Shown: positions 38,903 to 59,446, counted from the stretch's first letter. The stretch is 64,000 bases of DNA from Bradymonadia bacterium (GCA_044376085.1 JBILLN010000004.1:36076-100075), one strand, 5' to 3'. A program made the numbers and translations. The notes: generated by a model from the sequence alone, not told the origin.

Positions 38903-41761
38903 TCACTCCTCGAAGCGGATCTCGCGGCGGAAGGTCGGCGCGACGCCCCGTCCGACGGGGACGTCCCCGGGTTTGGGAATGCCGTCGAGATCGTCATCGG
39001 GCCCCGAAGCGATCTCCCCCGTCCACCAGAGCTCGCTGGCGACGAGCCCGGCGCGCACGGTGCTGCGGAAGAACGTCGAGAGGCGCGTTTCCGCTTCGAC
39101 CAGGCCCGCCCGGGCGGCCGCATCGAGGACCTCGACCACGCGGGCGGCGAGGGCCGGGGTATAGGTGTACAGGGGGTCTCCGAGAGCGGTCTGGAACGTA
39201 CCGGCCTCGGCATCCCAGAAGGCCCCGAGGCGACCCCAGAGCCGTCGCGCCGAAGACAGCGCGTCTTCGTCTCCGCCTTCGGAGAGGGCCAATAGGCCTC
39301 CGAGGACGGCGAGCTGCGCCTCGAGTCCGGGACGCACCACCGTGACGGGGACGGCCGGATCGGTCGAGAGGGCGTCCGGGTACCAGAAGTCCGGTCGGAC
39401 GTTCGCGTCGAGCGCCTCGCGCAGCGCCGCCACCCTCGCCGAGGCAACCCCCCGGTCGACGAGGCCCGCCGCGCTGCCGACGGCCAGGCCGACGAGGGCA
39501 TCGCCCGCGTCGGCGGTCGCGAGCTCCGGCGAGAATCCGGCCTCGGGCGACCACGACGAGCGATAGGTGGCCGTCACCGGCTCGAACGCCCGCTCGGGCA
39601 GAAGTGCAGCCGCGTTGCGTGCGTACTCCGTGGCACCGGCGATGGCCCCCTCCGACTGCAAGGGGGCGCTCGCCCACCCGCCCGAGCGGCTCTCGCCGAT
39701 CCGGACCAGAGCGAGCGCCGCGACGAGGCCGCGGGCCTGCTCTCCGAGTCCGTAGCGGGCGTCGACGATGCCGAACGACTCCGGCCGTCGGGGCAGCCCC
39801 GGGAGTCCCTGACGGTCCGTGGCGCGAATCTCCGCGGGCACGTATCGGACACCGTTCGTCCCGAGCACGTTGAGACGACCCGTCCCCGGGTCGAGACCGA
39901 AGCTGCGGCCGACCCAATCGTACAGGTACCCGCTCTGCTGCCAGGCGATGAGCGCCAGCGTGCCCTCCCGCGCCGTCAGGCCGGGCCGCATGGTCCCGCC
40001 GACCGGAACCGTGGCGTCCGACTCGATCCAGTCGGCCACCGCCGTCCGCTGAGCCGAGGTCGCAGGGACGGACGGATGCGGCACGTCGCGACCGAGATAC
40101 TGCATCAGCGGGCTGGCCGCCGGCGCGCCGCGAACGACGAGCGCCTCCACGGCGGTCGGTGCCGTCAGATCCGGGCGGTCGGCCCCCGGGCGATGACACC
40201 CGAGGCAGCGCTGCCCGAGCACGGGCGCGACGTCCCGAGCGAACGTCCCGTCGCCGGTGACGTGCGAGACGCTCGTCGCCGAGCCGATCCGGGCGGCCAG
40301 CGCGGCCATCGTGGCGTGCAGTCCGGCGGCCGTATGGTTCCGCAGGGGACCCGCGGAGCCTTCCCAGGTCCAGCCGGCGTAGTCGTCCTCGGCGACGGGC
40401 AGTCCGTCGGCCCGCACCTCGGGATCGGGCTCGCGGAGCAGCAATGCCGAGGCGCCCTCGAACGGCAGAACGAGCGGGTAGATGTTGGCCGGCACCGAGT
40501 CTTCGGAGAAGGCCGCGAGCCCGCCGAGCGTCGCGGCGAGGGTCTCTTCCAGGTTCGATCCGTTTCCGTCGCGGTCCGGAGACGCCTGAGCCGAGCCGGC
40601 GCGGGCGATGTTCAAGGGGGCATAGACGGGGCTGAATCCTGCGTGCGACATGAGCAGCACCGCGTCCGAGGCCGTGCGACCGATGGCCCACATCTCGTAG
40701 GCATCGGCGGTGTACGTCGGCCCATCGCTGCGGCCGGACCAGCGGCCCGCGGCATTCATCAATGCCGCCGCCAGGGCAAGACTGCCCGCGACGTCCACGC
40801 GTTCGGCGTCGAGTGCGGCCACCGGTGCGCGGGGGCCGATGGGACCGATGCGGTAGGTCTCGGTGCGGGTCGGCTCCCAGTTGCCGCCCGGATCCACCCC
40901 GCGGAACTTCAGGGTCGTCTCGACGCTGAAGACCTCGACACCGGACCAGACCGGCGCGCTCGCGTCCGGCTCGCTGCCATCCAGCGTGTAATGGATGGTC
41001 CCCGATGGGTCGTTGATCCCGAGGCGGACCTCGATGGGCGCGAGGAAGGCGCCCCCCGGCGGGTCGGCCGCGGTCGTCGGCGCCACATCATCGACCACGT
41101 AGGTGAAGTTCTTGGGCCCCCACAGATTGTTCGCCAGGTCCGTGACCCGGACCGACAGAGTCGTCGGGTGCTCGAGAGTCAACTCGAGCACGTCCTGCGC
41201 GGTGCGGGTCGTCGAGCCGCCCGGCACGGCGATGCGACCATCGGTGGTGTAGTAGATGGTGACGGGCTCGTCGGCGGTCACCCGCACCGTCACGGGGCCC
41301 GGAAAGGGAATCCCGGGATCGGGCTGTGGGTCGATCGTGACATCGGGCGGTGTCGAGTCGAACCGGATAAAGGTCCGATGACGTTCGGCCTCCCGGTTCC
41401 CGGCCAGGTCGACCGCGAACCACCGCAGTTCGGTATCCCGGACGAGCGTCGTCGAGATCGTCTGGCCGGCCTGCCCCGTGTCGGGGTCGCCGGGCGTCGG
41501 TTCGCTGCCGTCCGTCGTGTAGTAGATCGAGCCCGGCTCGTTCATGGTGAGCCGCACGCGAGCCTGGCGCGCGCCGAGCAACATCCCGGAGGGGCCGAGG
41601 GGCGTCTCCGCCCCGCTCGTCGCGATGAACGCCTCGCTGACCGGGGCCTCCCGGTCCGGTGGAGACGTCTTGCCTTCCGGCGCGCACCCGACCGCCCCGG
41701 CCGCGAGGGTCGCGGCGAGGACGGACGACGGCACGAACACGGACCGATCGTGAGGTTTCAA
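38903..41761 (-). CDS. lipoprotein with three chitobiase/Fn3-like (CHB_HEX_C) repeats and a c-type cytochrome domain
   Basis: TTG 41761 after a GGAAGGA RBS; lipobox LAAGAVGC; three I(Y/H)YT(T/L)DG(S/R) repeats; [18 protein letters not shown] (CxxCH). Confidence 0.85.
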
Positions 41762-41911
41762 GGTCGTGTTTCCTTCCGCAGTGATCGGCGCGGGATGCCC
41801 GGGGGAGACCCCGTCGGCGATGGGCCGCGAGGCATGATAAGGCATGCCGCCGCGAACGCGACAAAAGTCGGCGCTTGCAACTCGGGGCCCATTGTGGCAA
41901 TCCGCCGCGCC

Positions 41912-43732
<1,821 letters not shown>

Positions 43733-43746
43733 GAGCCCAGGCCGGC

Positions 43747-45408
43747 TCAGGCCAGGGAGGATCTCTCCCGGGCCTCGCGCCAGAAAGACTCCCGCACCGA
43801 CTGCCAGGTGGTCAGGACGAGTTCGACCTCCTCCGGATCGAGGCAGACGACCTGCGCGGACGGACCGGCGAGGGCGGTACAGCTCGCCACCTCCTGCCGC
43901 AGCATCGAGACGACACCGACGAAGTCCCCGGCCGGGAGTTGCGTCAGCGTCTGTCCGTCCCGGTAGACGATGAGGCTGCCCCGCGTGACGAGGTAGAGCC
44001 CCTCGGGCGACGAGCCCTCGGCGAAGAGTTCCTCGCCCGGGCCGAGGGCAATCGGACGGAATCGGGCGGCGAGCGCCCCGCGGTCCCGCGCGGGCAGATG
44101 GCCGAAGAGCCGGCTCCCGGCCAGGTATCGACCGACGACCTCGAGCTCGGCCGCTTCGTCGAGCATCCGCTCGAACGCGGGAAAATGACGGCGGAGAAAG
44201 CCGACCTTGTCGACGCCGATCTTCATGAGTTCGGCCTCTTCGATGGCCGTCGCCGTCACCCGGGCGGGCTGGGGATCGAGCAGCTCGACTTCTCCGAAGA
44301 AGCCGCCGGGGTCGAGTTGGCAGACTTCGACATCACCGCGACCATCGTGGCTGCGGACCGTGAGCCGCACCGCCCCCCCCATGACCACGTACAGCCCGTC
44401 GACGGGCTCCCCGGCGCGCAAGACGTCGGTCCCCGCCCGGAAGAGGCGTCGGTCGGCCCGGTGGGTCAACTCCTGGAGGGACGCCCTCGGCAGGGCCGCG
44501 AACAGGGGGACGGCGGGCGGAGGCGCTCGAAACGCCCCCGGCACCGGGGATGGCATCGGCGACGGGACCGGCGCGGCCACCGGCGCGGGTCCGCTCGCGG
44601 TCGTCGCCGTCGCAACGGCCGGCGCGGGAGCGACCTCCGGGACCGACTCGTCGGAGTCGTGCGCATCGGCCGCGGTGAAGAGCTCGACGTCGATGTCGAG
44701 CGTCCCGGCGGGATCATCCGCGAGGGCGCCGCCGCCTCGGGCCGGAATCGCGATCGCGACCGAGCCGACCAGCGCCCGGGCGGGCTCCGCGTCCGGCGAC
44801 GGCAAAAGGTCCTCGTCGGACAGGTCGACGGTTCCCGAGACCCCCTGCCCCTCCGGCAGGAGGTCCACGGTCGCGCGATGGTCATCCAGGTCGGAGCGAC
44901 CGTCCTTGCCGGCAAGGTCTCCCGTCGCCACGAGCGAGCCGTCTACGGAAAGGGAAAGGTCGATCGAGGATTGGGACGCGAGCTCGGCGCCGGCCTCATC
45001 GGCGGAGTACACCTTCACCAGCGCCACCGCGTCGAGGGGCGCGTCCCGGTCGGGGCGTCCGAGCTCGTCGAGGGGATCGACCGGGACCGCGGCCGTGACG
45101 GTCGGCACGAAACCACTCCGCGGTGCGGCCGCGAAGACACTTGCCAGGAACGTCATCGCTTCTTCGTGTCCGGGCTCGATGCGCAGGGCTTCTCGGGCTG
45201 CCGCCACGGCGTCTTCCAGAAATCCGTCGTTGCGGAGGTCCCGAGCGAGACCCAACCACTCGCGGAGGGCCGCTTTGGGCTGACCGTCCGCCTCGAACAG
45301 GCGGGCAAGCTGCTCGCGGTGCCCGCGGTGCCGCGGCTCGAGCTCCAGGAGCCGACGGAAGTTCTTGATCGCCGCCCGCACGGCCTTGGGATCGAACGGC
45401 GGGTTCAC
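43747..45408 (-). CDS. TPR + tandem cyclic-nucleotide-binding domain protein
   Basis: N-terminal TPR-like AIKNFRRLLELEP...ALRIEP. cNMP motifs PLFAAL..GEPVDGLYVVMGG..FFGE and LFGHL..EGSSPEGLYLVTRG..DFVG. Start GTG 45408 is approximate. Confidence 0.85.
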   Translation of the reverse strand: MNPPFDPKAVRAAIKNFRRLLELEPRHRGHREQLARLFEADGQPKAALREWLGLARDLRNDGFLEDAVAAAREALRIEPGHEEAMTFLASVFAAAPRSGFVPTVTAAVPVDPLDELGRPDRDAPLDAVALVKVYSADEAGAELASQSSIDLSLSVDGSLVATGDLAGKDGRSDLDDHRATVDLLPEGQGVSGTVDLSDEDLLPSPDAEPARALVGSVAIAIPARGGGALADDPAGTLDIDVELFTAADAHDSDESVPEVAPAPAVATATTASGPAPVAAPVPSPMPSPVPGAFRAPPPAVPLFAALPRASLQELTHRADRRLFRAGTDVLRAGEPVDGLYVVMGGAVRLTVRSHDGRGDVEVCQLDPGGFFGEVELLDPQPARVTATAIEEAELMKIGVDKVGFLRRHFPAFERMLDEAAELEVVGRYLAGSRLFGHLPARDRGALAARFRPIALGPGEELFAEGSSPEGLYLVTRGSLIVYRDGQTLTQLPAGDFVGVVSMLRQEVASCTALAGPSAQVVCLDPEEVELVLTTWQSVRESFWREARERSSLA

Positions 45409-45626
45409 GCGCGACTCCGGCCGGGCGTGCCGAACGGCCCGAAAGAACCACCGGACGCTGTGCTGCCGAGCGAGGGACGCATGTAGCCTTCTGGGACAAT
45501 CGGGCGGAGGCACACGGGTCGAGCGCGGCCCTCTGCCCGCCACGCCTCCCGTCGTGGTTGGCATCGCACAGACGGGGGGCTTCCGTCCAGTTCCATTCGG
45601 GCATACCCGTAGCGACGACCCAGTGG

Positions 45627-45720
45627 TCCCGGCTCGGCGCTTCTGGTAAGCACCCCGAGGGCGCCGACGCGCCACCGACCCTCAGCCGTCACCGCCGCTC
45701 GGCCGACGCCGAGCCAGGGA
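45627..45720. other. about 95-nt intergenic long hairpin (possible structured RNA)
   Basis: TCCCGGCTCGGCG (45627-45639) pairs with CGCCGAGCC-A-GGGA (45707-45720). On the minus strand, inner stems GGTGA/TTACC and CTGAGGG/CCCTCGG also pair. Confidence 0.4.
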
Positions 45721-46033: not shown

Positions 46034-46930
46034 ATGATCTCATCGACCGCGGGCGGTCGCTTCGCCCGACGCCGCCCCGACGTTCCGGCTCGCATCGCGC
46101 TCGCCCTGGCGATGCTGCTTTCGCACTCGGCGCACGCCGCCCCCGAGACCATCCTGACACGCGAACAGGAAGCGGCCCGCAACGCCGAGGAAGCCGAGCG
46201 CGAGGCGCTCGTTCGCCTCGTCTACCAGGAGCGCCTTCTCCAGGTGCCGCCGGAGACGTTCCATGCCCCGGTCGTCGATCCCGCCCGACCCGTGTCCGCC
46301 ATGGTCGAGGACCTCCTCTTCCTCGACCTCGCGGTTCATCTGCTGGAGCACGGGGGCGTCGAGAACGTCGACCGCCTCCGTGCGGCGGCCCAGACCTGGC
46401 GGGCGCGCTCGACCCGCGACGCCGCGCGCTCCCTCGACGCGCTCACCGACCGTCTCCGCCCATCCCGGGAAGAGTTGACGGAGGCCGGTCGGAGTGCGCT
46501 CGCCCTGTCGGCCGTCGCCGCACGTGCCGAAGAAAAGTCCGGGGGCGCCGCCCTCGGCCTCGATGCCCCGGCGCCCGGCAGCGTCGCCCCCCTCGATTAC
46601 ATTCCCGTCCCCCCCGAGGACCTTGCCGCCCTTCGGGAACGCTACCTCGCGTCCGGACAGCCGGTGGACGAGGCCTGGTACAACCGCCTGGCCCGGGACC
46701 CCGTGGCCGAGGAGCGCTGGAAGCAGCAACAGGCGGCCATGGAGAAGGAAGTCGCCCGTCTTCAGACCGGTTGGAAGACCGAGAAGGGGCTCGGCTACCG
46801 GATCGGCACCTGGACGCAGGAAGTCTGGCAACGCAAGGATCCGCTCGGTCTCGCGGTGATCGCCGTCTTCCTTCTCGGCGCGGTCGCGACGCTCTTCATC
46901 GGTTTCAAGCTCCTGCGGAGGGACCGATGA
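46034..46930 (+). CDS. hypothetical exported protein with C-terminal TM anchor
   Basis: Signal-like IALALAMLLSHSAHA and C-terminal TM LGLAVIAVFLLGAVATLFIGF; ATGA overlap with the next gene. Confidence 0.7.
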   Translation: MISSTAGGRFARRRPDVPARIALALAMLLSHSAHAAPETILTREQEAARNAEEAEREALVRLVYQERLLQVPPETFHAPVVDPARPVSAMVEDLLFLDLAVHLLEHGGVENVDRLRAAAQTWRARSTRDAARSLDALTDRLRPSREELTEAGRSALALSAVAARAEEKSGGAALGLDAPAPGSVAPLDYIPVPPEDLAALRERYLASGQPVDEAWYNRLARDPVAEERWKQQQAAMEKEVARLQTGWKTEKGLGYRIGTWTQEVWQRKDPLGLAVIAVFLLGAVATLFIGFKLLRRDR

Positions 46931-48393
46931 GCGTGCGTGGTCGTCTCGCGAGCGCCGGTCGGTGCATCGGCCTCTTCGCGTTGGCTTGGCTCGCGGCCTG
47001 CGGCGACGATCCCCCGCCGGGGCCCGTCCCCGGCGAGCTCGACTTCGCGGCCGGGCAGGAGGCCATGCGGGCCGGGCAATATGCCGTCGCGCAGGACCTC
47101 TTCCAGCGCGCGTACGTCCGGGGTGCCGATCCGCATCTGAGCCTGCTCTGGGAGATCCGGGCGGATCTGGCCCTGGGCAACGTGGATGCGGCTCGCACCG
47201 CCCTCGTTCGTCTTCTGGACCTCGCGCCGGACAACGTCGCGGCGCGTGCGCTGCAAGTCCGCCTTTCCCTGCTGCTCGGGGAGTACGAGGACGCCTGGCA
47301 GCAGCGTGCCCTGCTGCCCGCCACGGACCCGGCAGCCGCGCTGACCGAGGCGGAACTCCTGCTCGGCATCGGGCTCGGCAGCCGGGCGGAGCGGGCCATC
47401 CGCGCGGGCATGGCCGCCCACCCCGATCGCCCCGAGTGGCCGTTTCACCTCGCCAAGGCAGACCTGCTCCGCGGGTGGCTTCGAGACGCGCGCGGCGCCT
47501 ACGTCGCCGCCGCCCAGGCCGCGCGAACGGGCCTCGGCCACACCCGCGAGGCCTGGTTCTTCGCGCTGCTCGGGGAACGCGACCGCGCCGAGCGGGCCTA
47601 CCTCGACGCCGCGGTCCACGCCGAGCGCGATGCCCTGCCCTTCAGCCTCTCGAGCGACTTCTATGCCGCTGCCGCTCGCTACGAAGACGCCGTGACGGAC
47701 CTGGCGAACATGGAACGCCTTCTCGGACGCGGCAGCCCGGACCTCACCCGACGGGTGTCGGGCCTTTTCGTGCGCAGCGGTCGACTCGCCGACGCCGAGG
47801 GCCTGATGAAGCCCTATCTCCAGCGCCGGGTCGAGGATCGCACCGCCGCGCGGGAGCTCGCGCTGAGCTACCTGCTCGGGGGGAAGGACGCAGAGGCCGC
47901 GGCCACGCTGGAGGTGCTCGTCCTCAAAGACCGCGACAGCGCACCGACGCAGTATCTCACGGGGGCCGCGCGCTTGCGGATCGGGGATACCACGCGCGCC
48001 CGAACCGCCTTCCAGGAAGCCGAGCGCAAGGGCGGCGGTGACCGCCTGCCCGTCTCCCTGGCGCTCGCGGCGACCGCCCTCCGGACGCACGACTGGTTCG
48101 ACGCCGAGTTTCAGGCGCGCCGTCGCCTGGAGGCCGCACCGGACGACTGGTTGGCCGGTCTCGTCTGGGCCGCGGCCCGAAAGTATCAGGGGCAGCCCGC
48201 CGGCGCCCGCATCCTGCTGGAGCGGCTCGTCGCCCGGTTCCCGGAACGCGCGCAACAGCTCCGGGCGGCGCTGTCGTTGCCACCGGCGCCGCCGGGTGAG
48301 GTGCCGCCGGACAATCTGCCCGCGCGCCTCCTCGACCGTTACTTCCCGCCCTCGGCGCAGAATCCGCCGGCGAGTGCCCCCCCGGCGCCCTGA
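46927..48393 (+). CDS. TPR-repeat lipoprotein
   Basis: ATG 46927; lipobox LAWLAAC; repeated TPR-like helices (AMRAGQYAVAQDLFQRA, LLDLAPDNVAA, YLTGAARLRIGD). Confidence 0.85.
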   Translation: MSVRGRLASAGRCIGLFALAWLAACGDDPPPGPVPGELDFAAGQEAMRAGQYAVAQDLFQRAYVRGADPHLSLLWEIRADLALGNVDAARTALVRLLDLAPDNVAARALQVRLSLLLGEYEDAWQQRALLPATDPAAALTEAELLLGIGLGSRAERAIRAGMAAHPDRPEWPFHLAKADLLRGWLRDARGAYVAAAQAARTGLGHTREAWFFALLGERDRAERAYLDAAVHAERDALPFSLSSDFYAAAARYEDAVTDLANMERLLGRGSPDLTRRVSGLFVRSGRLADAEGLMKPYLQRRVEDRTAARELALSYLLGGKDAEAAATLEVLVLKDRDSAPTQYLTGAARLRIGDTTRARTAFQEAERKGGGDRLPVSLALAATALRTHDWFDAEFQARRRLEAAPDDWLAGLVWAAARKYQGQPAGARILLERLVARFPERAQQLRAALSLPPAPPGEVPPDNLPARLLDRYFPPSAQNPPASAPPAP

Positions 48394-48594: not shown

Positions 48595-50955
48595 TCAGGG
48601 GGGGCCTAGCGTGACCACGCTGGTCAGACCGCCCTCGAGCAGCAACCAGCCCGAGACCACGGCCGGGCGGCCGCCGAAGGACGGACGCAGCTCCAGACCT
48701 TCGATGCGGGGGGCGACCGCCGAGATCTGGGCCGCATCCACGGCCACGGCCGGAATGGCGAGCGAGAGGCCACCCGCCAAGGCGTCCCGAATCCCCGGCC
48801 AGACGGCCGCTCCGAACAGAATCTCCAGGGCCGCGGGCGCCAGAACCGGGCGGTCTCCCGCCTGCCGGAGAAGCTCGGCGGAGATGGTCGGCGCATCCGC
48901 GGTGACGAGGCGCAACGCCCCGGCCTCGTCCATCTCGAGCGAGATCCCGGCGGTCAGCGTCAGGACGTACTCGTCGGCCTCTCCACCGGCGGGCCCAGTC
49001 AGGAAGACCCGCACGTCGCCCAACTGCGCGTCCATCGGGAACGCCGCCCCCGGCTCGGCCGGGGCAACGACCGGCGGAAGGTGAGCGTCGAGCCGGACCT
49101 GCTGCACGACGGCCGCCAGCTCGGGCGGAAGCGCCGGCGTGATCTGGAGAAGTCCGGTGCGCCAGACCTCGTGAAGCAGTCCGTTGAGCAGATCCAGACG
49201 GAGAGCGAGACCCAACGAGAGGTCGCGGTCCTGCGGGGGGTCGCCCATGGACACGACCGGGATGCCCGGAACCGGGAAGGGCGAGGCGACGGGCTCGGGG
49301 TGCGTGAGGCGCCCCTCCAGCACGAGGGCCAGTCCGGTCCGGCGCTGCCGGTCGACCCCTTCGGGCAGGAGTCCGAGGGTGAGCTCCGCCACCGGGGCGC
49401 CCTCGATGCCCACGTCCAGCCGAATGGGAATCTCCGCGAGGGAGCCCACCAGGCCGTCGAGGCCCGTCCGCACCAGGGTCGGGAGCTGCTCGCGGACGAT
49501 GCTGTCCACGAGTCCCGCGGCGAGGCCTTCCACGGTGCCGCGAAGCCGACTGCCCAGCGTATCGACGAGCGCCTGAGCGGACGGGTCTGCGAATCGTCCG
49601 CTCAGCGTTTCGAGCACGACGCCGCTGTCGGCGACCTCGATCAGAAGTCCCCCCGCCTCACCGATCGCGAACGTCAAGCGGGCGAATGCGGCGAGCGACG
49701 CATCCAGGCCTCCCGTGAGATCGAGTCGCGCCCCTTCGAAGTCGAATGCTCCGGCCACGTCGAGATGCAGGCCGCCGAGCCGCAGGAACAGCTCGAGCCC
49801 TTCCGGAACGACGACGAGGTCGACCTCGGGGACGCCGAGGGAGACGTCGCGGATGGTGAGCCCGCCGGCATCGACGCCGCCGAGCAGGGCCGCTGCGTCC
49901 GCCGCGCCCAGGAGACCGGCGAGCAGGGACGCCAGGTCCTCGACCGCCCACGGACCGGCGACGTCGGGCACGACGATCGGGGTATCCCGGTCCAGCAGCG
50001 CCTGCCCGAGCCACAGGCGCGCACCGTCCGGAACCACGGCGCCGTTCGCGCCGACCCGCAGGTACTCGGGCGCCCAGAGGACGTCCCGGGACACGCGGGC
50101 CGCCTGCGGCTGGACACCGTCGTCGGCCGTGACCTCGAGATGGTTGATCCCGAATCGGGCCGGAACGTCGAGGGCGAAGTCGCCGCCGGCGCCCACCGCC
50201 ACGGGCACGCCGTTGACGTGGACGGTGACCGTCCCCCCGGTATCGGTCGCGGTGCCGCGCACCGCAATCGTCTCGGTACGGTCGCCCCCCAGCGCGGCTC
50301 CGCGGTCGGGAGCCGTGAGCACGAGCGTCGGCGGACCGGCGTCCACGTAAAGCTGCGCCCGTCCGCAGACCTCGTCCGGCGCGGTCGCGCAGGCGACGAC
50401 GGTGCCCGGCCCCTCCCCCTCGAACGTCAGGCGACCCTCGGCATCGATGGCGCCCAGGGCAGCCGGCTCCAGCCGCCAGGTGACGGGGACGTCCGCCAGC
50501 GGTTCACCGTCACGCCCATGGACGGTCGCCTCGGCGACCGGAGGCGTCTCCGGTGCGTACAGGCCCTGCCGCGGGGTCAGGCGGACGGTGACGAAACCGA
50601 TGGCCGGCGGACGCGGGCGGCCGGCATCGGGCTTCGAGGGCTCGGTGGCATCGGGCGAGGGGTCGGCGGCGTCCGCCTCGTCCGGAGCGCCGGCGTCGCG
50701 GCGCGCCGCATCGTCCCCGGCCGGACCACCGTCGTCGTGGGCCGTCGCGTCGAGGGGCGGGCTCGGGCGCTGCGCGTCGGAGATCGCAGCGTCGTCGGGT
50801 GCCGCGTCGAGGGGTTCGGCCTTGCCGCCACTCGGGGCGGTATCGGCGCATCCGGCCGCCCAGACCGCGAGCGCGAGGGCGGTCCGCGCCCCGGCGACGA
50901 AAGCCGGCGGCGGCCTGCATGGACCGGTGGAGACCGTTCGTTTCGGGGTGTTCAT
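48595..50955 (-). CDS. lipoprotein: Ig-like domains + putative BPI/LBP (TULIP)-like C-terminal region
   Basis: ATG 50955 overlaps the upstream stop; lipobox LAVWAAGC; Asp/Pro linker; Ig-like VRGTATD...FGINHLEVTADDG; C-terminal LALRLDLLNGLLHEVWRTG. Confidence 0.75.
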   Translation of the reverse strand: MNTPKRTVSTGPCRPPPAFVAGARTALALAVWAAGCADTAPSGGKAEPLDAAPDDAAISDAQRPSPPLDATAHDDGGPAGDDAARRDAGAPDEADAADPSPDATEPSKPDAGRPRPPAIGFVTVRLTPRQGLYAPETPPVAEATVHGRDGEPLADVPVTWRLEPAALGAIDAEGRLTFEGEGPGTVVACATAPDEVCGRAQLYVDAGPPTLVLTAPDRGAALGGDRTETIAVRGTATDTGGTVTVHVNGVPVAVGAGGDFALDVPARFGINHLEVTADDGVQPQAARVSRDVLWAPEYLRVGANGAVVPDGARLWLGQALLDRDTPIVVPDVAGPWAVEDLASLLAGLLGAADAAALLGGVDAGGLTIRDVSLGVPEVDLVVVPEGLELFLRLGGLHLDVAGAFDFEGARLDLTGGLDASLAAFARLTFAIGEAGGLLIEVADSGVVLETLSGRFADPSAQALVDTLGSRLRGTVEGLAAGLVDSIVREQLPTLVRTGLDGLVGSLAEIPIRLDVGIEGAPVAELTLGLLPEGVDRQRRTGLALVLEGRLTHPEPVASPFPVPGIPVVSMGDPPQDRDLSLGLALRLDLLNGLLHEVWRTGLLQITPALPPELAAVVQQVRLDAHLPPVVAPAEPGAAFPMDAQLGDVRVFLTGPAGGEADEYVLTLTAGISLEMDEAGALRLVTADAPTISAELLRQAGDRPVLAPAALEILFGAAVWPGIRDALAGGLSLAIPAVAVDAAQISAVAPRIEGLELRPSFGGRPAVVSGWLLLEGGLTSVVTLGPP

Positions 50956-53822
50956 TCGCCGAAAACTCCATCGACGAGCCAGTGAGCGGGTGTGCCCTGG
51001 AGCGCCAGGCGGCGCACGCCGAGTCGGGTCCCGGGGGCGATGCCATAGGCCGCGAGGTCCGGGGGCAGCGCGAAATCGGGAACGGGCAAGCTCGGCAACG
51101 CCCCGCTCAGCGACCCGTCCAGGAGCGACTGGACGATGCCCCGGAACAGCGATTCGAGCGTGGCACGGGTCTGCGGCGTCAGCGCGACGCCGTCGACCGC
51201 CAATGCGAGGCGATCGACGACGATTCCGCCGTCCCCGCCGAACCGGATCTCGTTGCCGTTCACCAGCTCGACCTCGGCCCGGGCGCTGGCCGCAAGCTGA
51301 ATCCGCAGCGGTTCGTCGAAGAGGCCGGGATAGAGAATCGACCCGGTCGCGGGACCGAGGAACAGGCGCAATGCATTGTCCGCCTCCCCGGTGCCGATGG
51401 CCGCGGGTGGCAGCAGAACACGGAGTTCCAGCGCCGCGCCTTCGGGCAGACCGCCGAGCGCGCCCCCGCCGATCCGGAACGTCCCGCTGCGCCAGAGCGC
51501 ATGAAGGACCTGGTTGACGAGCCCGATGGAGACCGAGACCGCGGCCGTCCCCGCGGGATTCAGCCCGACGGCGACGGGTCCGGGCGGCAAGGGAACCCCT
51601 GCAGATGCGCCGGCTTCTCCGAGCGGACCGGTGACGGCGGTCTGGAGGCCGAGCAGCAAACGCGCCGGTGTCGTGTCGAGCGCATCGATGCCGAATGCGA
51701 TCTGGAGCGCGGCGGGGGGACCGCCGCCGAGCGACGGCACGCTGATTTCGGTATCGAACGACGACACGTCGAGTCCCCCCAGGACTCCGGTCAGCAGCCC
51801 GTCGATCTGAGTCTCCAGGTACCCCCGCAGCGCGTCTGCGACGGTGCTCCGGACCGTGCCCTCGAAGGCCGAGAAGATGAGGTCGAGGACGTCGCCGGTC
51901 AGGAAGCCGGCGAAGTCGCTGTCCATCGGGCCGACCTGGACCGCGTTGATGGACCGGATCGCAATCGTCGGTCGACCGTCGACCAGACCGAGGTCGAACG
52001 TGAGGTCCACCTCGAGGTAATCGGCGAAGAGCGTACCGCGGTTCGACACGGTGCCGAGCAGTTGAACGTCGAGCTCGAGGTTGCTGATCCGCCCCCGCAC
52101 CCGGAGACCGCCGTCGACGAGCTCCGAGTTCAGCGCGTTCGGCCCCCGAATGCGCAACCCCCGATACTCGGCGCCCGCGCTCAGGACGCAGAGTCCGAAG
52201 ACCCGGGCGCGGCACTCGTTCGGCACGATCGGGTTCTGCGCCCGCAGGGACGTGTCGAGCGTGTCGATCAGCCCCTGGGAATCGATCACCGCGCGCAGGA
52301 GGTCCGTCAGGCTGTTCAGCGGGCGGTCGGGCGGCCCATCGTCGACCGCTCCCTGTGTCAGAACGAGCTGAATCGCGTCCAGCAGAGGCTCGTTCTCCGG
52401 GTGGTAGCGATCCGCAGCGAAATAGGTGCAAAACGTGCTGTTCGCGTTGCCGACCGCGTCGGTCGCCACGACGTCGTGCACGTTGAGACCCCAGTGTGGC
52501 GCCACCTCGACGGAGAAGCGACCGGATGGGTCGACCGGCACGGGGACGCCGTCGACCGTGACCTGCTCGACGCCCGCGACATCGCCGACCTGCCCCTCGA
52601 GGCGGACCGGCGCGTCCGTGAGCACCATCGCGGCGGGCTCGGGGGCCGTGCAGCCGACCGACGGCCCCCCGGCGTCGACGAGGATCGCCGTGGTCGCGCA
52701 CAGGGGTTCGCCCGTCACCGTCGGCCCCGTCGTGCAGACCTCGAGGCCGAACCGACCTTCGCGGGCCAGGGAGAAGCGCCCCTCACCGAAGCCCGGCAGG
52801 GCCGGCGTTGTGGTCCAGGTGAGCGGGACGTCGTCCACCCGGTTGTCGTACAGGTCGGTGACGACCGCCCGATACCCGACGATCCGCCCGACGGAATAGA
52901 CGGGCAGATCGGGGTCGAGGGCCGCCTGCAGAGCCGCCGGCGTCGAGGGCACGACCAGAACGGCGGCGGACGCCGAGGTCTGCACGCCCGGCAATTCGCA
53001 GGTGACCTGGTACCGACCGGCCCGGGTGAAGGTGACCCGCTGTCCATCGATCACGTTGGCCGGTGAGGCGGGCGCGACGGAGACGGTCGCATCCTGCACG
53101 GGCAGCAGGTTGCCCTCGGCATCGGTGGCCTCGCACGTCACGCTCACCAAGGTGCCCGCCTCGACGATGGCCTGGTCTCGTTCCAGGCGCGTGACGACGG
53201 CGGCCGGCGCGCCGGGGAAGACGTCCCACCGGGCCGGCGTCGCGTCCCGCAGACCGACGGCCGGGGCCACGCAGGTCACCGAGTAGGTCGCGGCGCGGAC
53301 GCCCACGACTTCGGTGTCTTCGGCGCCGCGCCGCCAGCCCGCCGCCGGCCGGACCTCGAAACTGGTCGGGACGCCGGCAATCGCGACGCCCTCGGGGTCG
53401 AGCACCTCGCAGGTGACCCGGTTCGCGAGTCCGGCGGTCGTGGCCGCCTGCCCGAGGAGGGTCTGAATCGACCGGGGCTCCGGCGGCGGCTCGACGACCG
53501 CCGAGTCCGGACCCGCGTCGGGCGGAATCGCGCCATCGGCAGCGTCGACTTCCGGCGCCTGCGCGTCGCGTGAGATGACGGCGGCGTCCGGCTCGATCGC
53601 GGTCGCGTCGGTGCCGGGCGTCGGGCCGGCGTCGAGAGCGGGCTCGGCCGTCGCGTCGGGCGGGGCGGCGGTCGCGTCCGGGGCGAACCCCGCGTCGGCC
53701 TCCCTCGATTTGCCCGGACCCGTCACCCCGTCGTTGCAGGCCGTCAGGGCGACCAGCAGGACCCCCGCGAGCGCGAATCTCCCGGGACGTTTCGGGTCGC
53801 TGCGTCGGATCGTCTGCACCAT
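50952..53822 (-). CDS. lipoprotein: Ig-like domains + putative BPI/LBP (TULIP)-like C-terminal region (paralogue of the neighbour)
   Basis: Lipobox LLVALTAC; DA/PDA linker; Ig-like repeats ending WGLNVHDVVATDAVGN; C-terminal VSIGLVNQVLHALWRSG. Confidence 0.8.
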   Translation of the reverse strand: MVQTIRRSDPKRPGRFALAGVLLVALTACNDGVTGPGKSREADAGFAPDATAAPPDATAEPALDAGPTPGTDATAIEPDAAVISRDAQAPEVDAADGAIPPDAGPDSAVVEPPPEPRSIQTLLGQAATTAGLANRVTCEVLDPEGVAIAGVPTSFEVRPAAGWRRGAEDTEVVGVRAATYSVTCVAPAVGLRDATPARWDVFPGAPAAVVTRLERDQAIVEAGTLVSVTCEATDAEGNLLPVQDATVSVAPASPANVIDGQRVTFTRAGRYQVTCELPGVQTSASAAVLVVPSTPAALQAALDPDLPVYSVGRIVGYRAVVTDLYDNRVDDVPLTWTTTPALPGFGEGRFSLAREGRFGLEVCTTGPTVTGEPLCATTAILVDAGGPSVGCTAPEPAAMVLTDAPVRLEGQVGDVAGVEQVTVDGVPVPVDPSGRFSVEVAPHWGLNVHDVVATDAVGNANSTFCTYFAADRYHPENEPLLDAIQLVLTQGAVDDGPPDRPLNSLTDLLRAVIDSQGLIDTLDTSLRAQNPIVPNECRARVFGLCVLSAGAEYRGLRIRGPNALNSELVDGGLRVRGRISNLELDVQLLGTVSNRGTLFADYLEVDLTFDLGLVDGRPTIAIRSINAVQVGPMDSDFAGFLTGDVLDLIFSAFEGTVRSTVADALRGYLETQIDGLLTGVLGGLDVSSFDTEISVPSLGGGPPAALQIAFGIDALDTTPARLLLGLQTAVTGPLGEAGASAGVPLPPGPVAVGLNPAGTAAVSVSIGLVNQVLHALWRSGTFRIGGGALGGLPEGAALELRVLLPPAAIGTGEADNALRLFLGPATGSILYPGLFDEPLRIQLAASARAEVELVNGNEIRFGGDGGIVVDRLALAVDGVALTPQTRATLESLFRGIVQSLLDGSLSGALPSLPVPDFALPPDLAAYGIAPGTRLGVRRLALQGTPAHWLVDGVFGE

Positions 53823-56895: not shown

Positions 56896-57942
56896 TCACT
56901 CTCGCCAGAGCATCTTCCACGGGTGACGCTTCAGGTCGCGCAGCATCTCTTTGAGGTCGTCATAGATTTCCTGGTCGATGATGAGCTGACCGATGGTGCC
57001 ACGGCCCGTGCTCACCCCCGCGGTGAGCGCCGCCGCATCTCGCATGACCGTGCGGGCGTGCTGCGAGATCGGCTCCAGGTTCGCGAGGGCGACGTCGATG
57101 TGGCCGCGGTTCTTCTCGACGACCTCCTTGAGGACCACGACGGACTCGTCGACGTTCTTCATCGTGCGCTGGGCCGTGGCGATCAACGGCTTGGCTTCGG
57201 TGGCGGCCGTCGCGCTCAGCGACTTCACGTTCTGGACGATGGCGCCCACGTTGTCCGACGAACCGACCCCCTCGCGCAGGTACTTCGCGAGCCCGGCGGC
57301 ATCTCCCGTGGCCTGCTCCACATTGACCGCGATGCTCGAGAGTCGCTGTTTGTTGTCCGTCAGAATCTCGTCCACGTTCTTGACGAGTTTGATCAACGAC
57401 CGGGCGAGTTCACCCAGATTCAAACCTTCGCCCCCGCTGAAGGCGGCCTCGACCTTGGCGAGAATGCTGCCGGCCTTGGCGAAGAGGAGGTCGATCCGCG
57501 CCGGGTCGCGACCGCGGATGTACGCCCCATCCGACCACTCCGGTGAGGCGTCCGTTCCCGGCACGATCTCGACGTACTTCTCGCCGAGCACGCCCTGGGT
57601 CGTGATGTAGAATTCGGAGTCCCGACGCACGGCGGCGGCCATGTTCTCCGCGACGGTGATGCGCAGCCGCACGTTGATCGGCGGCTCGCCCTCGGCTTCC
57701 GAGGCGCTCTTCCGGGCATTGCGCGCCACCAGGAATTCGACGTCTTCGACTCGCCCGGCCCGCACGCCGGCAATCTTCACCGGCGCACCGCGGAGGACCG
57801 ACCCCGAGTCGGCGACCTCGATGTGGTAACTGCGCACGGCGCCGACGCTGAAACTGCCGAGGAGCAGCACGAAGCCGACCAGCAGGCCCAAGGCCACGAG
57901 GATCAGCGCCCCGACTTTCATCTGCATGTTGCGTTCGCTCAT
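56896..57942 (-). CDS. mlaD: MCE-domain protein (MlaD family) with long helical extension
   Basis: N-terminal TM; motifs GAPVKIAGVRAGRV and ITTQGVLGEKYVEI.PG; coiled helices; GTIGQLI..DLKRHPWK. Confidence 0.93.
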   Translation of the reverse strand: MSERNMQMKVGALILVALGLLVGFVLLLGSFSVGAVRSYHIEVADSGSVLRGAPVKIAGVRAGRVEDVEFLVARNARKSASEAEGEPPINVRLRITVAENMAAAVRRDSEFYITTQGVLGEKYVEIVPGTDASPEWSDGAYIRGRDPARIDLLFAKAGSILAKVEAAFSGGEGLNLGELARSLIKLVKNVDEILTDNKQRLSSIAVNVEQATGDAAGLAKYLREGVGSSDNVGAIVQNVKSLSATAATEAKPLIATAQRTMKNVDESVVVLKEVVEKNRGHIDVALANLEPISQHARTVMRDAAALTAGVSTGRGTIGQLIIDQEIYDDLKEMLRDLKRHPWKMLWRE

Positions 57943-58682
57943 AGCTCCATGGGTCCTTCGGGCAGACCGTTCACGAACTGCCGGACGACGGGATTCGCAC
58001 AGGAACGATACTCCGTCGGCGGGCCATCCAGCAGAACCTTGCCCTGATACAGCATCACGATCCGGTCGGCGATGCCGAAGATGCTGCGCAGATCGTGGCT
58101 GACGACGATGCTCGTCACGCCCGTGCGATCCGACATCTCACGGATCAGGCGGTCCACGCGCACGGCGCTGACCGGATCGAGGCCCGTCGTCGGTTCGTCG
58201 AAGATGACGTATTCGGGATCGAGGGTGAGCGCCCGTGCGATGGCCACCCGTTTGCGAAGTCCGTCGCCGATCTCTCCCGGCGCGCGGTCGGCGAGGTGGT
58301 CCATGTGGACGAGCGCGAGTTTGGCGCGGGCCTGCTCGAGGGCCTCGGCGCGCGAGACGCCCCGATGTTTGCGAATGGGCAGCGCGACGTTCTCGATCAG
58401 GCTCATGCTGTCGAAGAGAGTGCTGTGCTGAAAGACCATCGCACAGCGCTTTCGCATCTCGTAGAAGTCTTTCTCCCGGTAGTTCGTGATGTCCGTGCCT
58501 TCGAACAAGATCTGCCCGGCATCCTGCCGAATCAGACCCACCAGATGCTTGACCAGGACGCTCTTGCCCGCGCCCGATTTCCCGATGATGAACAGGATCT
58601 GGCCCGTCTGGACGGTGACCGAGACGCCGTCGAGCACCTTGTTGGCCCCGAAAGCCTTGTGGATGTCGATGAACTCGATCAC
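57939..58682 (-). CDS. mlaF: MlaF/Mkl-type ABC ATPase (degenerate signature motif)
   Basis: GTG 58682; Walker A GKSGAGKS; Q-loop VFQ; signature IGDGL; Walker B VIFDEP; H-loop SHD. Confidence 0.93.
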   Translation of the reverse strand: MIEFIDIHKAFGANKVLDGVSVTVQTGQILFIIGKSGAGKSVLVKHLVGLIRQDAGQILFEGTDITNYREKDFYEMRKRCAMVFQHSTLFDSMSLIENVALPIRKHRGVSRAEALEQARAKLALVHMDHLADRAPGEIGDGLRKRVAIARALTLDPEYVIFDEPTTGLDPVSAVRVDRLIREMSDRTGVTSIVVSHDLRSIFGIADRIVMLYQGKVLLDGPPTEYRSCANPVVRQFVNGLPEGPMEL

Positions 58683-59446
58683 GTCAGCCCCGCCGTCTTG
58701 AACAGAAAGGCGATGCCGCCGATCAGGAAATCCAGCGCAATGACGGCCAGGCTGGCGTTCACGACCGCCTGGGTCGTGGCCCACCCGACCCCTTCGCTGC
58801 CCCCGCGCGCCGCGAACCCGCTGTGTCCGGCGATGATGGGGATCACCATGCCGAAGACGACCGCTTTGCTCGCGCCCTCGAAGACATCCGGCAGTCGGAT
58901 GAGGTCGAAGTTCATGTACGTCGCCGGGATGGTGTGGAACGACGCCCAGGTCACGTACATGCCCGCCAGGAAGGCGATCGTCGTGCCGATGACCCAGAGG
59001 ACGGGCACCATGATCGTGCAGGCGATGAAACGCGGTTTGATCAGGTAGTCCACCGGTTGTGCATTGCACATCCGCAGCGCGTCGACCTGCTCGGTGACCA
59101 CCATGCTGCCGATCTCCGCCGCGATGCCGGTGCCGACTCGAATCGCGACCATGAGGCCGCAGAGCGTGGGGCCCAGCTGTCGGACGAGCAACGGCAGCGT
59201 CGCCGCGCCGAGCAGCGAGGTGTCGCCGAAGAGGCGCATCGCCTGGAAGCCGGTCTGGAAGTTCAGGATGGCGCCGAGGAAACCCATGGTGACGAGGATG
59301 AAGAAGACGCTGCGGTTGCCGACCTGGAACATCTGCTCCAGCACCGGTGCCCAGCGCCAGCGGCCCCGGAAGACGTAGTACAGCGTCAGTCCGAACGTGC
59401 GGACGATGCCCCGGATCTCGTCGATGACGAACTGCACGAGTCCCAT
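58679..59446 (-). CDS. mlaE: MlaE/YrbE-type ABC permease
   Basis: LVRQLGP.L.GLM...RVGTGIAAEIGSMVVTEQVDALR and GGSEGVG.ATT.AVV. Confidence 0.95.
   Translation of the reverse strand: MGLVQFVIDEIRGIVRTFGLTLYYVFRGRWRWAPVLEQMFQVGNRSVFFILVTMGFLGAILNFQTGFQAMRLFGDTSLLGAATLPLLVRQLGPTLCGLMVAIRVGTGIAAEIGSMVVTEQVDALRMCNAQPVDYLIKPRFIACTIMVPVLWVIGTTIAFLAGMYVTWASFHTIPATYMNFDLIRLPDVFEGASKAVVFGMVIPIIAGHSGFAARGGSEGVGWATTQAVVNASLAVIALDFLIGGIAFLFKTAGLT

Follow-up and report, generated by a model that had tools for sequence, protein, structure and literature searches.

A conserved tandem of paralogous lipoproteins with predicted BPI-like double-TULIP modules in Myxococcota

Two adjacent minus-strand genes in a 64,000-nucleotide stretch of DNA from a Bradymonadia bacterium (GCA_044376085.1, JBILLN010000004.1:36076-100075; the whole stretch is hereafter the window, with a GC content of about 72%) raise the question of what a bacterium might do with a pair of proteins whose C-terminal halves recall the vertebrate lipid carriers BPI, LBP, and CETP. 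Gene A (50952..53822, stop included), an ATG-initiated open reading frame (ORF), codes for a lipoprotein of 956 residues, and gene B (48595..50955, stop included), translated from the ATG at 50955, for one of 786 residues. An original prediction, made from the DNA sequence, had read the two as ATGA-coupled paralogues sharing a lipobox, a tether, an immunoglobulin (Ig)-like stalk, and a BPI/LBP (TULIP)-like C-terminal region, and had suggested that they form a heterodimeric module for the capture or transfer of lipids or lipopolysaccharide (LPS), which could extract prey lipids or sense LPS. The evidence described below firmly supports a co-translated, extracytoplasmic, lipid-anchored pair with a predicted BPI-like head on A and a homologous head on B. 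Taking these findings together, we propose, as the probable reading, that A and B are old, co-translated paralogous lipoproteins of the cell envelope whose double-TULIP heads carry lipids, perhaps in series.

Remote homology of the C-terminal modules to BPI and LBP

The C-terminal module of A comprises residues 470-956 (50955..52415, minus strand) and that of B residues 295-786 (48598..50073, minus strand), and these approximately 490 residues match no Pfam or NCBIfam model in either protein. A profile of 66 A modules, compared with 177,635 PDB sequences, recovered LBP (E 6.7e-5) and BPI (8.4e-5 and 1.1e-4) as its top three matches, which cover the first barrel, with a weak second stretch falling, in order, on BPI residues 313-428. 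The only matches of the B-module profile at E<=10 were BPI (0.029) and LBP (0.062). Among the individual A modules, sub-threshold matches to PF01273 were found in 22 of 66, always in the first half (module residues ~90-207), and to PF02886 in 7 of 66, always in the second half (~320-451); weak matches to other TULIP families, namely, DUF4403, JHBP, Grp7_allergen, and an SMP domain, were also seen with A modules. The ESM Atlas neighbors of both modules include a Bacteroidota cluster with PF02886 on 57% of its members (score 0.93), as well as eukaryotic BPI-like clusters. Thus, at the level of profiles, a remote homology of the modules to the solved BPI and LBP structures, with both barrels in the same order, is detectable.

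The predicted structural model of the A module extends this assignment over its full length, with two TULIP barrels joined by a central sheet in a boomerang and a high predicted confidence. In the model, a helix is wrapped by a long, highly twisted beta-sheet and closed by a second helix, which is the arrangement that defines the TULIP fold; residues 382-394, which contain the conserved motif N-Q-x-L-H-x-L-W-R, form the first helix of the second barrel. Hence, the A module is predicted to adopt a BPI/LBP/CETP-like double-TULIP fold. The B module is likely to have the same fold because it is homologous to A and because BPI and LBP were its sole PDB profile matches.

Several observations weigh against the assignment. 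The A and B proteins themselves match neither PF01273 nor PF02886 even at E<=1, and a six-frame search of the genome with these two models gave nothing at A or B at E<=10. Even the best-scoring homologues fall under the curated Pfam cut-offs (24.7 versus 28.8 bits and 14.5 versus 23 bits), and PF01273 touches only 1 of 28 B modules. The E-values of the B profile against BPI and LBP are not significant alone; the fold proposed for B is derived from its homology to A.

The relationship between A and B is clearest at the level of family profiles. The profile of 66 A modules aligns with that of 28 B modules in hhalign with a probability of 99.8% (E 1.1e-28, 413 columns, 24% identity), and the full-length family profiles align at 99.9% (E 4e-36, 596 columns). 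Direct comparison of the two proteins by BLASTP is significant for the Ig part only (35% identity over 131 residues, E 7e-14, the B stalk against A residues 331-457), the match between the C-terminal motifs reaching E 0.6; in relatives, the A module cross-matches B genes by tblastn at E 1e-7 to 1e-9. Judged by these alignments, the C-terminal modules of A and B are true paralogues. The original prediction thus anticipated the paralogy and, for A through profiles and the predicted fold and for B through homology, the BPI/LBP-like nature of the C-terminal halves; the motifs that it quoted are all present in the translations and are paired with each other by hhalign.

Lipid anchor, tether, and Ig-like stalk

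Both proteins start with a charged n-region and a hydrophobic core followed by a lipobox, which is LTAC in A (Cys29; signal peptide 53736..53822) and AAGC in B (Cys36; 50848..50955), as read from the sequence. Such a signal peptide ending in a lipobox cysteine is the hallmark of signal peptidase II substrates, and both are accordingly predicted lipoproteins. A lipobox-type cysteine was recovered by a regular expression in 73 of 87 A-type and 17 of 20 B-type homologues, and the misses are mostly near-lipoboxes or truncated gene calls. The A module further has a pair of cysteines (module residues 68 and 76) that is conserved in 59 and 58 of 66 members, respectively, and absent from B. The lipoboxes, together with this conserved pair, point to an extracytoplasmic location.

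The lipobox is followed in each protein by a low-complexity tether, rich in Ala, Pro, and Asp in A (residues 30-112, 53487..53735; 25% A, 16% P, and 14% D) and in Ala, Asp, and Pro in B (residues 37-118, 50602..50847; 26% A, 20% D, and 18% P). Next comes an Ig-like stalk, for which the length suggests about four beta-sandwich domains in A (residues 113-469, 52416..53486) and about two in B (residues 119-294, 50074..50601). The Pfam model Glucodextran_B matches these regions barely over its cut-off of 27 bits (A 393-466, 27.3 bits; B 209-279, 28.6 bits), and the A-family profile matches the intimin-like Ig array 4e9l (E 4.5e-9). The median length is 928 residues for A-type proteins (n=85), which are consistently the longer, and 746 for B-type proteins (n=19), which indicates that a difference in stalk of about two Ig domains is conserved.

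The stop codon of A and the start codon of B share the sequence ATGA (50952..50955, minus strand), as the original prediction had noted, along with the series of lipobox, tether, Ig-like stalk, and C-terminal region, the last of which is now delimited at about 490 residues. An overlap of this kind would be expected to couple the translation of the two genes. The start of B is placed at 50955 because a signal peptide and lipobox come next and because the four-nucleotide overlap recurs in relatives (see below); a longer ORF of 1,368 residues in the frame of B is a GC-rich read-through across gene A and was rejected as the true extent of B. A scan for promoters and terminators found nothing above shuffled controls, and a search of sequencing runs found no RNA run holding the A-B stretch, the matching runs all being of DNA. 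Near-identical DNA to 48595-53822 was observed in 20 lake-water or freshwater metagenome runs from 20 studies, four of which are possibly source runs; with this many freshwater runs, the source organism appears to be a recurrent freshwater myxobacterium.

Conservation and evolution of the gene pair

A word-indexed search at E<=1e-3 returned 87 homologues of A, every one of them unnamed or a "hypothetical protein," and 20 of B, whose source names, where listed, are likewise "hypothetical protein." Among representative clusters, the A module has 1,951 matches at E<=1e-3 and 291 at E<=1e-30; the best 150 of these are all close family members, and no bridge to named families is present among the matches listed. 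In the species genomes of GTDB, the A module occurs at 78 loci, and all of those with a name fall within Myxococcota, broadly defined (Bradymonadia, Lujinxingia vulgaris, Nannocystaceae, Sandaracinaceae, Kofleriaceae, Polyangiales, and Minicystis rosea). When the phylum was sampled evenly, the module was matched at E<=1e-10 in 151 of 301 genomes, including 14 of 14 from the family of the window's own organism, and the matches fall into two tiers, clear orthologues and distant relatives of ~1,000-1,300 residues.

The survey of synteny across Myxococcota that the original prediction had called for has now been run. Of the 78 loci, 75 are clearly A type, and in 59 of these, B lies directly downstream on the same strand. 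As 2 of the 16 loci lacking B end within 208 nucleotides of A, the pair is kept at 59 of the 73 loci with room downstream. The four-nucleotide overlap between stop and start is found in 38 of the 59 A-B loci, and most of the others have a candidate start within about 25 nucleotides of the A stop. The flanking genes, by comparison, recur in at most 12 of the 78 loci, all of them close relatives, and the A-B pair is thus the conserved unit. This bears on another reading of the proteins, in which the heads would carry a specialized hydrophobic small molecule, such as a carotenoid, a sterol, an isoprenoid signal, or a secondary metabolite, and not bulk lipid, on the model of the single-TULIP carriers JHBP, Takeout, and the beta-carotene-binding protein or of the neutral-lipid carrier CETP. 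With flanks common to so few loci, no biosynthetic genes are conserved beside the pair; a resemblance in fold does not identify a ligand; and we regard such a role as doubtful.

In a maximum-likelihood tree, the A and B modules are split at a single branch (100% SH-aLRT support), and the sub-clades on its two sides run in parallel. We interpret this as an old duplication that gave rise to A and B, followed by later duplications of whole pairs. A second pair is present on another contig of the same genome (25363-28940, minus strand, of contig C407; loci L081 and L083), with A' and B' 42% and 40% identical to A and B, and several metagenome-assembled genomes (MAGs) possess two pairs, e.g., loci L012 and L016, which lie on one contig. 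Distant relatives from other families of the phylum (E 1e-27 to 1e-39, ORFs of ~1,000-1,300 residues) were observed as same-strand tandems about 3 kb apart in five genomes (G069, contig C212; G124, C75; G046, C44; G022, C158; and G274, C78), which raises the possibility that the pairing of double-TULIP genes is a wider habit. We also found a 5'-truncated metagenomic protein of 1402 residues (P0111) with two complete A-type double-TULIP modules, at residues 65-554 and 911-1399; two such proteins may be naturally fused in it, or else a gene call has run two genes together.

Charge of the modules and the nature of the ligand

The N-terminal domain through which BPI binds the anionic LPS is cationic. 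The charges computed for the A and B modules revealed no such cationic N-terminal domain in either: the net charge is -23 for the A module and -33 for that of B (family medians -18 and -38), the N-terminal halves stand at -16 and -20, and the isoelectric points of the whole modules are 4.46 and 4.30. With both modules this strongly acidic, a BPI-like electrostatic capture of LPS is argued against, and a neutral or zwitterionic lipid is the more likely ligand. The capture or sensing of LPS suggested in the original prediction is therefore not supported.

The same result affects a further reading, namely, that the pair constitutes a predatory or antibacterial device displayed on the cell surface, in which BPI-like heads bind the LPS or membranes of prey and permeabilize them or extract their lipids, as has been proposed for TipA of Bdellovibrio (see below). 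Intimin-like Ig arrays, of the kind matched by the A-family profile, are typical of surface adhesins, and the named relatives in Bradymonadia and Lujinxingia belong to groups described as predators. The acidic modules are unlike the cationic LPS-binding domain of BPI, however, and the C termini of A and B, as inspected by eye in the translations, display no surface-sorting signal. Moreover, the presence of the module in half of the sampled genomes of the phylum and in all those of its own family fits a housekeeping envelope role at least equally well, and the host is known solely as an uncultured lake-water MAG. We consider a predatory device unlikely.

Comparison with characterized TULIP proteins

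With vertebrate BPI, LBP, and CETP (PF01273 plus PF02886; PDB 1bp1, 1ewf, 4m4d, and 2obd), the modules have 12-15% identity, under every Pfam cut-off. These proteins are soluble, whereas A and B would be lipid anchored on a tether and Ig-like stalk; BPI is cationic, whereas the modules of A and B are strongly acidic; and A and B, unlike BPI, LBP, and CETP, are encoded as a conserved heterotypic gene pair, in which the cysteine pair of A is missing from B. The clostridial OrfX1, OrfX3, and P47 proteins and Escherichia coli YceB are much weaker structural matches than BPI or CETP, and their gene contexts, neurotoxin clusters in the former case and a single small lipoprotein in the latter, are also unlike the A-B pair.

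Among bacterial proteins, the closest parallels come from three published accounts. The Bdellovibrio protein TipA (Bd2538/Bd2539 being TipA/TipB), the structure of which has been solved, is a lipid-filled double TULIP that forms a dimer of ~260 A and is opened by a beta-sandwich adapter, TipB; a Foldseek survey by its authors noted relatives with fused beta-rich domains and with a second double TULIP attached (bioRxiv 10.1101/2025.09.09.675085). The partner gene codes for a small C2-like adapter in the TipA/TipB system and for a second double TULIP, B, in the present pair, and TipA is a secreted soluble homodimer that is not reported as a lipoprotein, in contrast to A and B. No TipA chain occurs among our PDB profile matches (E<=10) or the listed Foldseek/VIA rows, an absence that is uninformative.

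The second parallel, DUF4403 (PF14356), is a full-length BPI-like two-TULIP protein of diderms, mostly an outer-membrane lipoprotein and predicted to face the intermembrane space (Levine 2019, PMC6791001). It thus resembles A and B in being a full-length two-TULIP protein that is mostly lipid anchored; it differs in having a linker of 20-25 residues and no Ig stalk, and no paired paralogue is described for it. PF14356 touches 2 of 66 A modules below its 28.3-bit cut-off (14.8 and 9.7 bits; E 0.011 and 0.39), and A and B do not match it. Lastly, bacterial AFDB models have been reported to cluster with human BPI, e.g., A0A2D5ZNG0 at TM 0.81 (Barrio-Hernandez 2023, PMC10584675). This is a structural-cluster observation without family definition, gene context, or function.

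Bacterial BPI-like double TULIPs are therefore already published, and A and B are not a new kind of protein. What sets them apart is the lack of a curated sequence model, the long tether and Ig-like stalk, the conserved heterotypic pairing, and the acidity of the modules. Our literature search found no published title or abstract on the A/B family, although Fig. EV2 and the homologue lists of the TipA preprint may include such proteins.

A proposed function in the cell envelope

We propose the following mechanism for the pair. A and B would be anchored in a membrane by their N-terminal lipids, from which a flexible tether of about 80 Ala/Pro/Asp-rich residues would lead to a rigid stalk of Ig-like domains, about four in A and about two in B, and thence to a BPI/LBP/CETP-like double-TULIP head of ~480-490 residues. 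By analogy with other TULIP proteins, the heads would take up lipids or other hydrophobic molecules in tubular cavities; every characterized TULIP named in the papers cited binds hydrophobic ligands, which suggests that the heads of A and B do so as well. They could then carry or pass their cargo across an aqueous gap of the envelope, either the periplasm or the space outward from the cell surface, with tether and stalk allowing the heads to reach tens of nanometers from the anchoring membrane. The two heads are likely to be held at different heights, as suggested by the conserved difference in stalk length, and possibly work in series. A physical complex of A and B, such as the heterodimer of the original prediction, is plausible in view of their coupling and co-inheritance.

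A more elaborate version, to which we accord little probability, is that the heads of A and B are not redundant but, held at two heights by the conserved two-domain difference in stalk length, join by their ends to form a hetero-oligomeric tube about 26 nm long. This is also the length of periplasm-spanning lipid bridges. If the tube is real, it would represent a lipoprotein-anchored, ATP-independent conduit made of BPI-like parts, through which lipids would cross the myxobacterial envelope or pass between cells, and the Ig domain beside each module would take the gate-opening role that TipB has for TipA, whose dimer is likewise of about 26 nm (bioRxiv 10.1101/2025.09.09.675085).

The proposal of two lipid-carrying heads has to contend with three further observations. 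First, 14 loci with room downstream have no B, and A can evidently work without it. These loci, mostly from Polyangiales and Kofleriaceae, fall in two clades of the A tree, a pattern suggesting that B was lost or replaced twice. Loci with an A gene, DNA downstream, and no B include L037, L045, L053, L058, and L073; and L055, L059, L062, L064, L065, and L068. Second, strand amphipathicity, a sequence proxy for a lipid-facing lumen that is weak for long twisted strands, exceeded z of 2 in only 2 of 13 strands, which gives no clear indication for or against a cavity. Third, the residue at position +2 after the lipobox cysteine is N in A and A in B (D in 24 of 73 A homologues), and lipoprotein sorting rules in this phylum differ from those of E. 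coli, so that it does not tell which of the two membranes, inner or outer, holds the anchor.

The first two of these would also be in keeping with an absence of any ligand transport, with the modules acting on their Ig stalk as structural spacers or as adhesive heads and the paralogues merely co-expressed. The characterized members of the fold named in the papers cited all bind hydrophobic ligands, however, and both barrels are retained in full, with a high predicted confidence, in a module conserved across the phylum, which makes this reading very improbable. We accordingly prefer the view that A and B are envelope lipoproteins with lipid-carrying heads.

Genes in the vicinity of the pair

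The neighbors of the pair, namely, the TPR, cyclic-nucleotide-binding/TPR, DUF3727, thiolase, MlaD/ABC, and BipA genes, were considered as parts of a common system and rejected, being retained in at most 12 of the 78 loci. About 3 kb upstream of A (56896-59069, minus strand), an MlaD protein (PF02470, E 1e-12) and an ABC ATPase (PF00005, E 1e-30) are encoded back to back and constitute a lipid-transport cassette of the Mla/MCE type. It is separated from A by thiolase and DUF3727 genes on the plus strand, and the cassette is found beside A-type genes in just four close loci. On the other side of the pair, a protein that combines TPR repeats with domains for cyclic-nucleotide binding (PF00027, E 9e-29, in two stretches) is encoded at 43747-45675 (minus strand), downstream of a convergent TPR gene (46771-48393, plus strand). 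At 38903-43732, a plus-strand ORF for a TypA/BipA GTPase, whose domains are all found from residue 617 onward, overlaps a long ORF of the minus strand, and the inner part of this second ORF matches chitobiase/hexosaminidase C-terminal and Fn3-associated domains (E 5e-28).

Implications

The ways in which lipids cross the diderm periplasm are a subject of continuing work (Mla, MCE/Let, and AsmA-like systems), in which bacterial TULIPs are the least studied of the candidates. The A/B family is large and nearly universal in some myxobacterial lineages, with no Pfam or NCBIfam model for its C-terminal module. Its function is directly testable, since some carriers can be cultured: both genes are present in Lujinxingia vulgaris TMQ2 and Minicystis rosea DSM 24000, and at least A is present in Sandaracinus amylolyticus. 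The family would thereby offer a second bacterial system, after TipA, for the study of how double TULIPs are loaded with lipids and pass them on.

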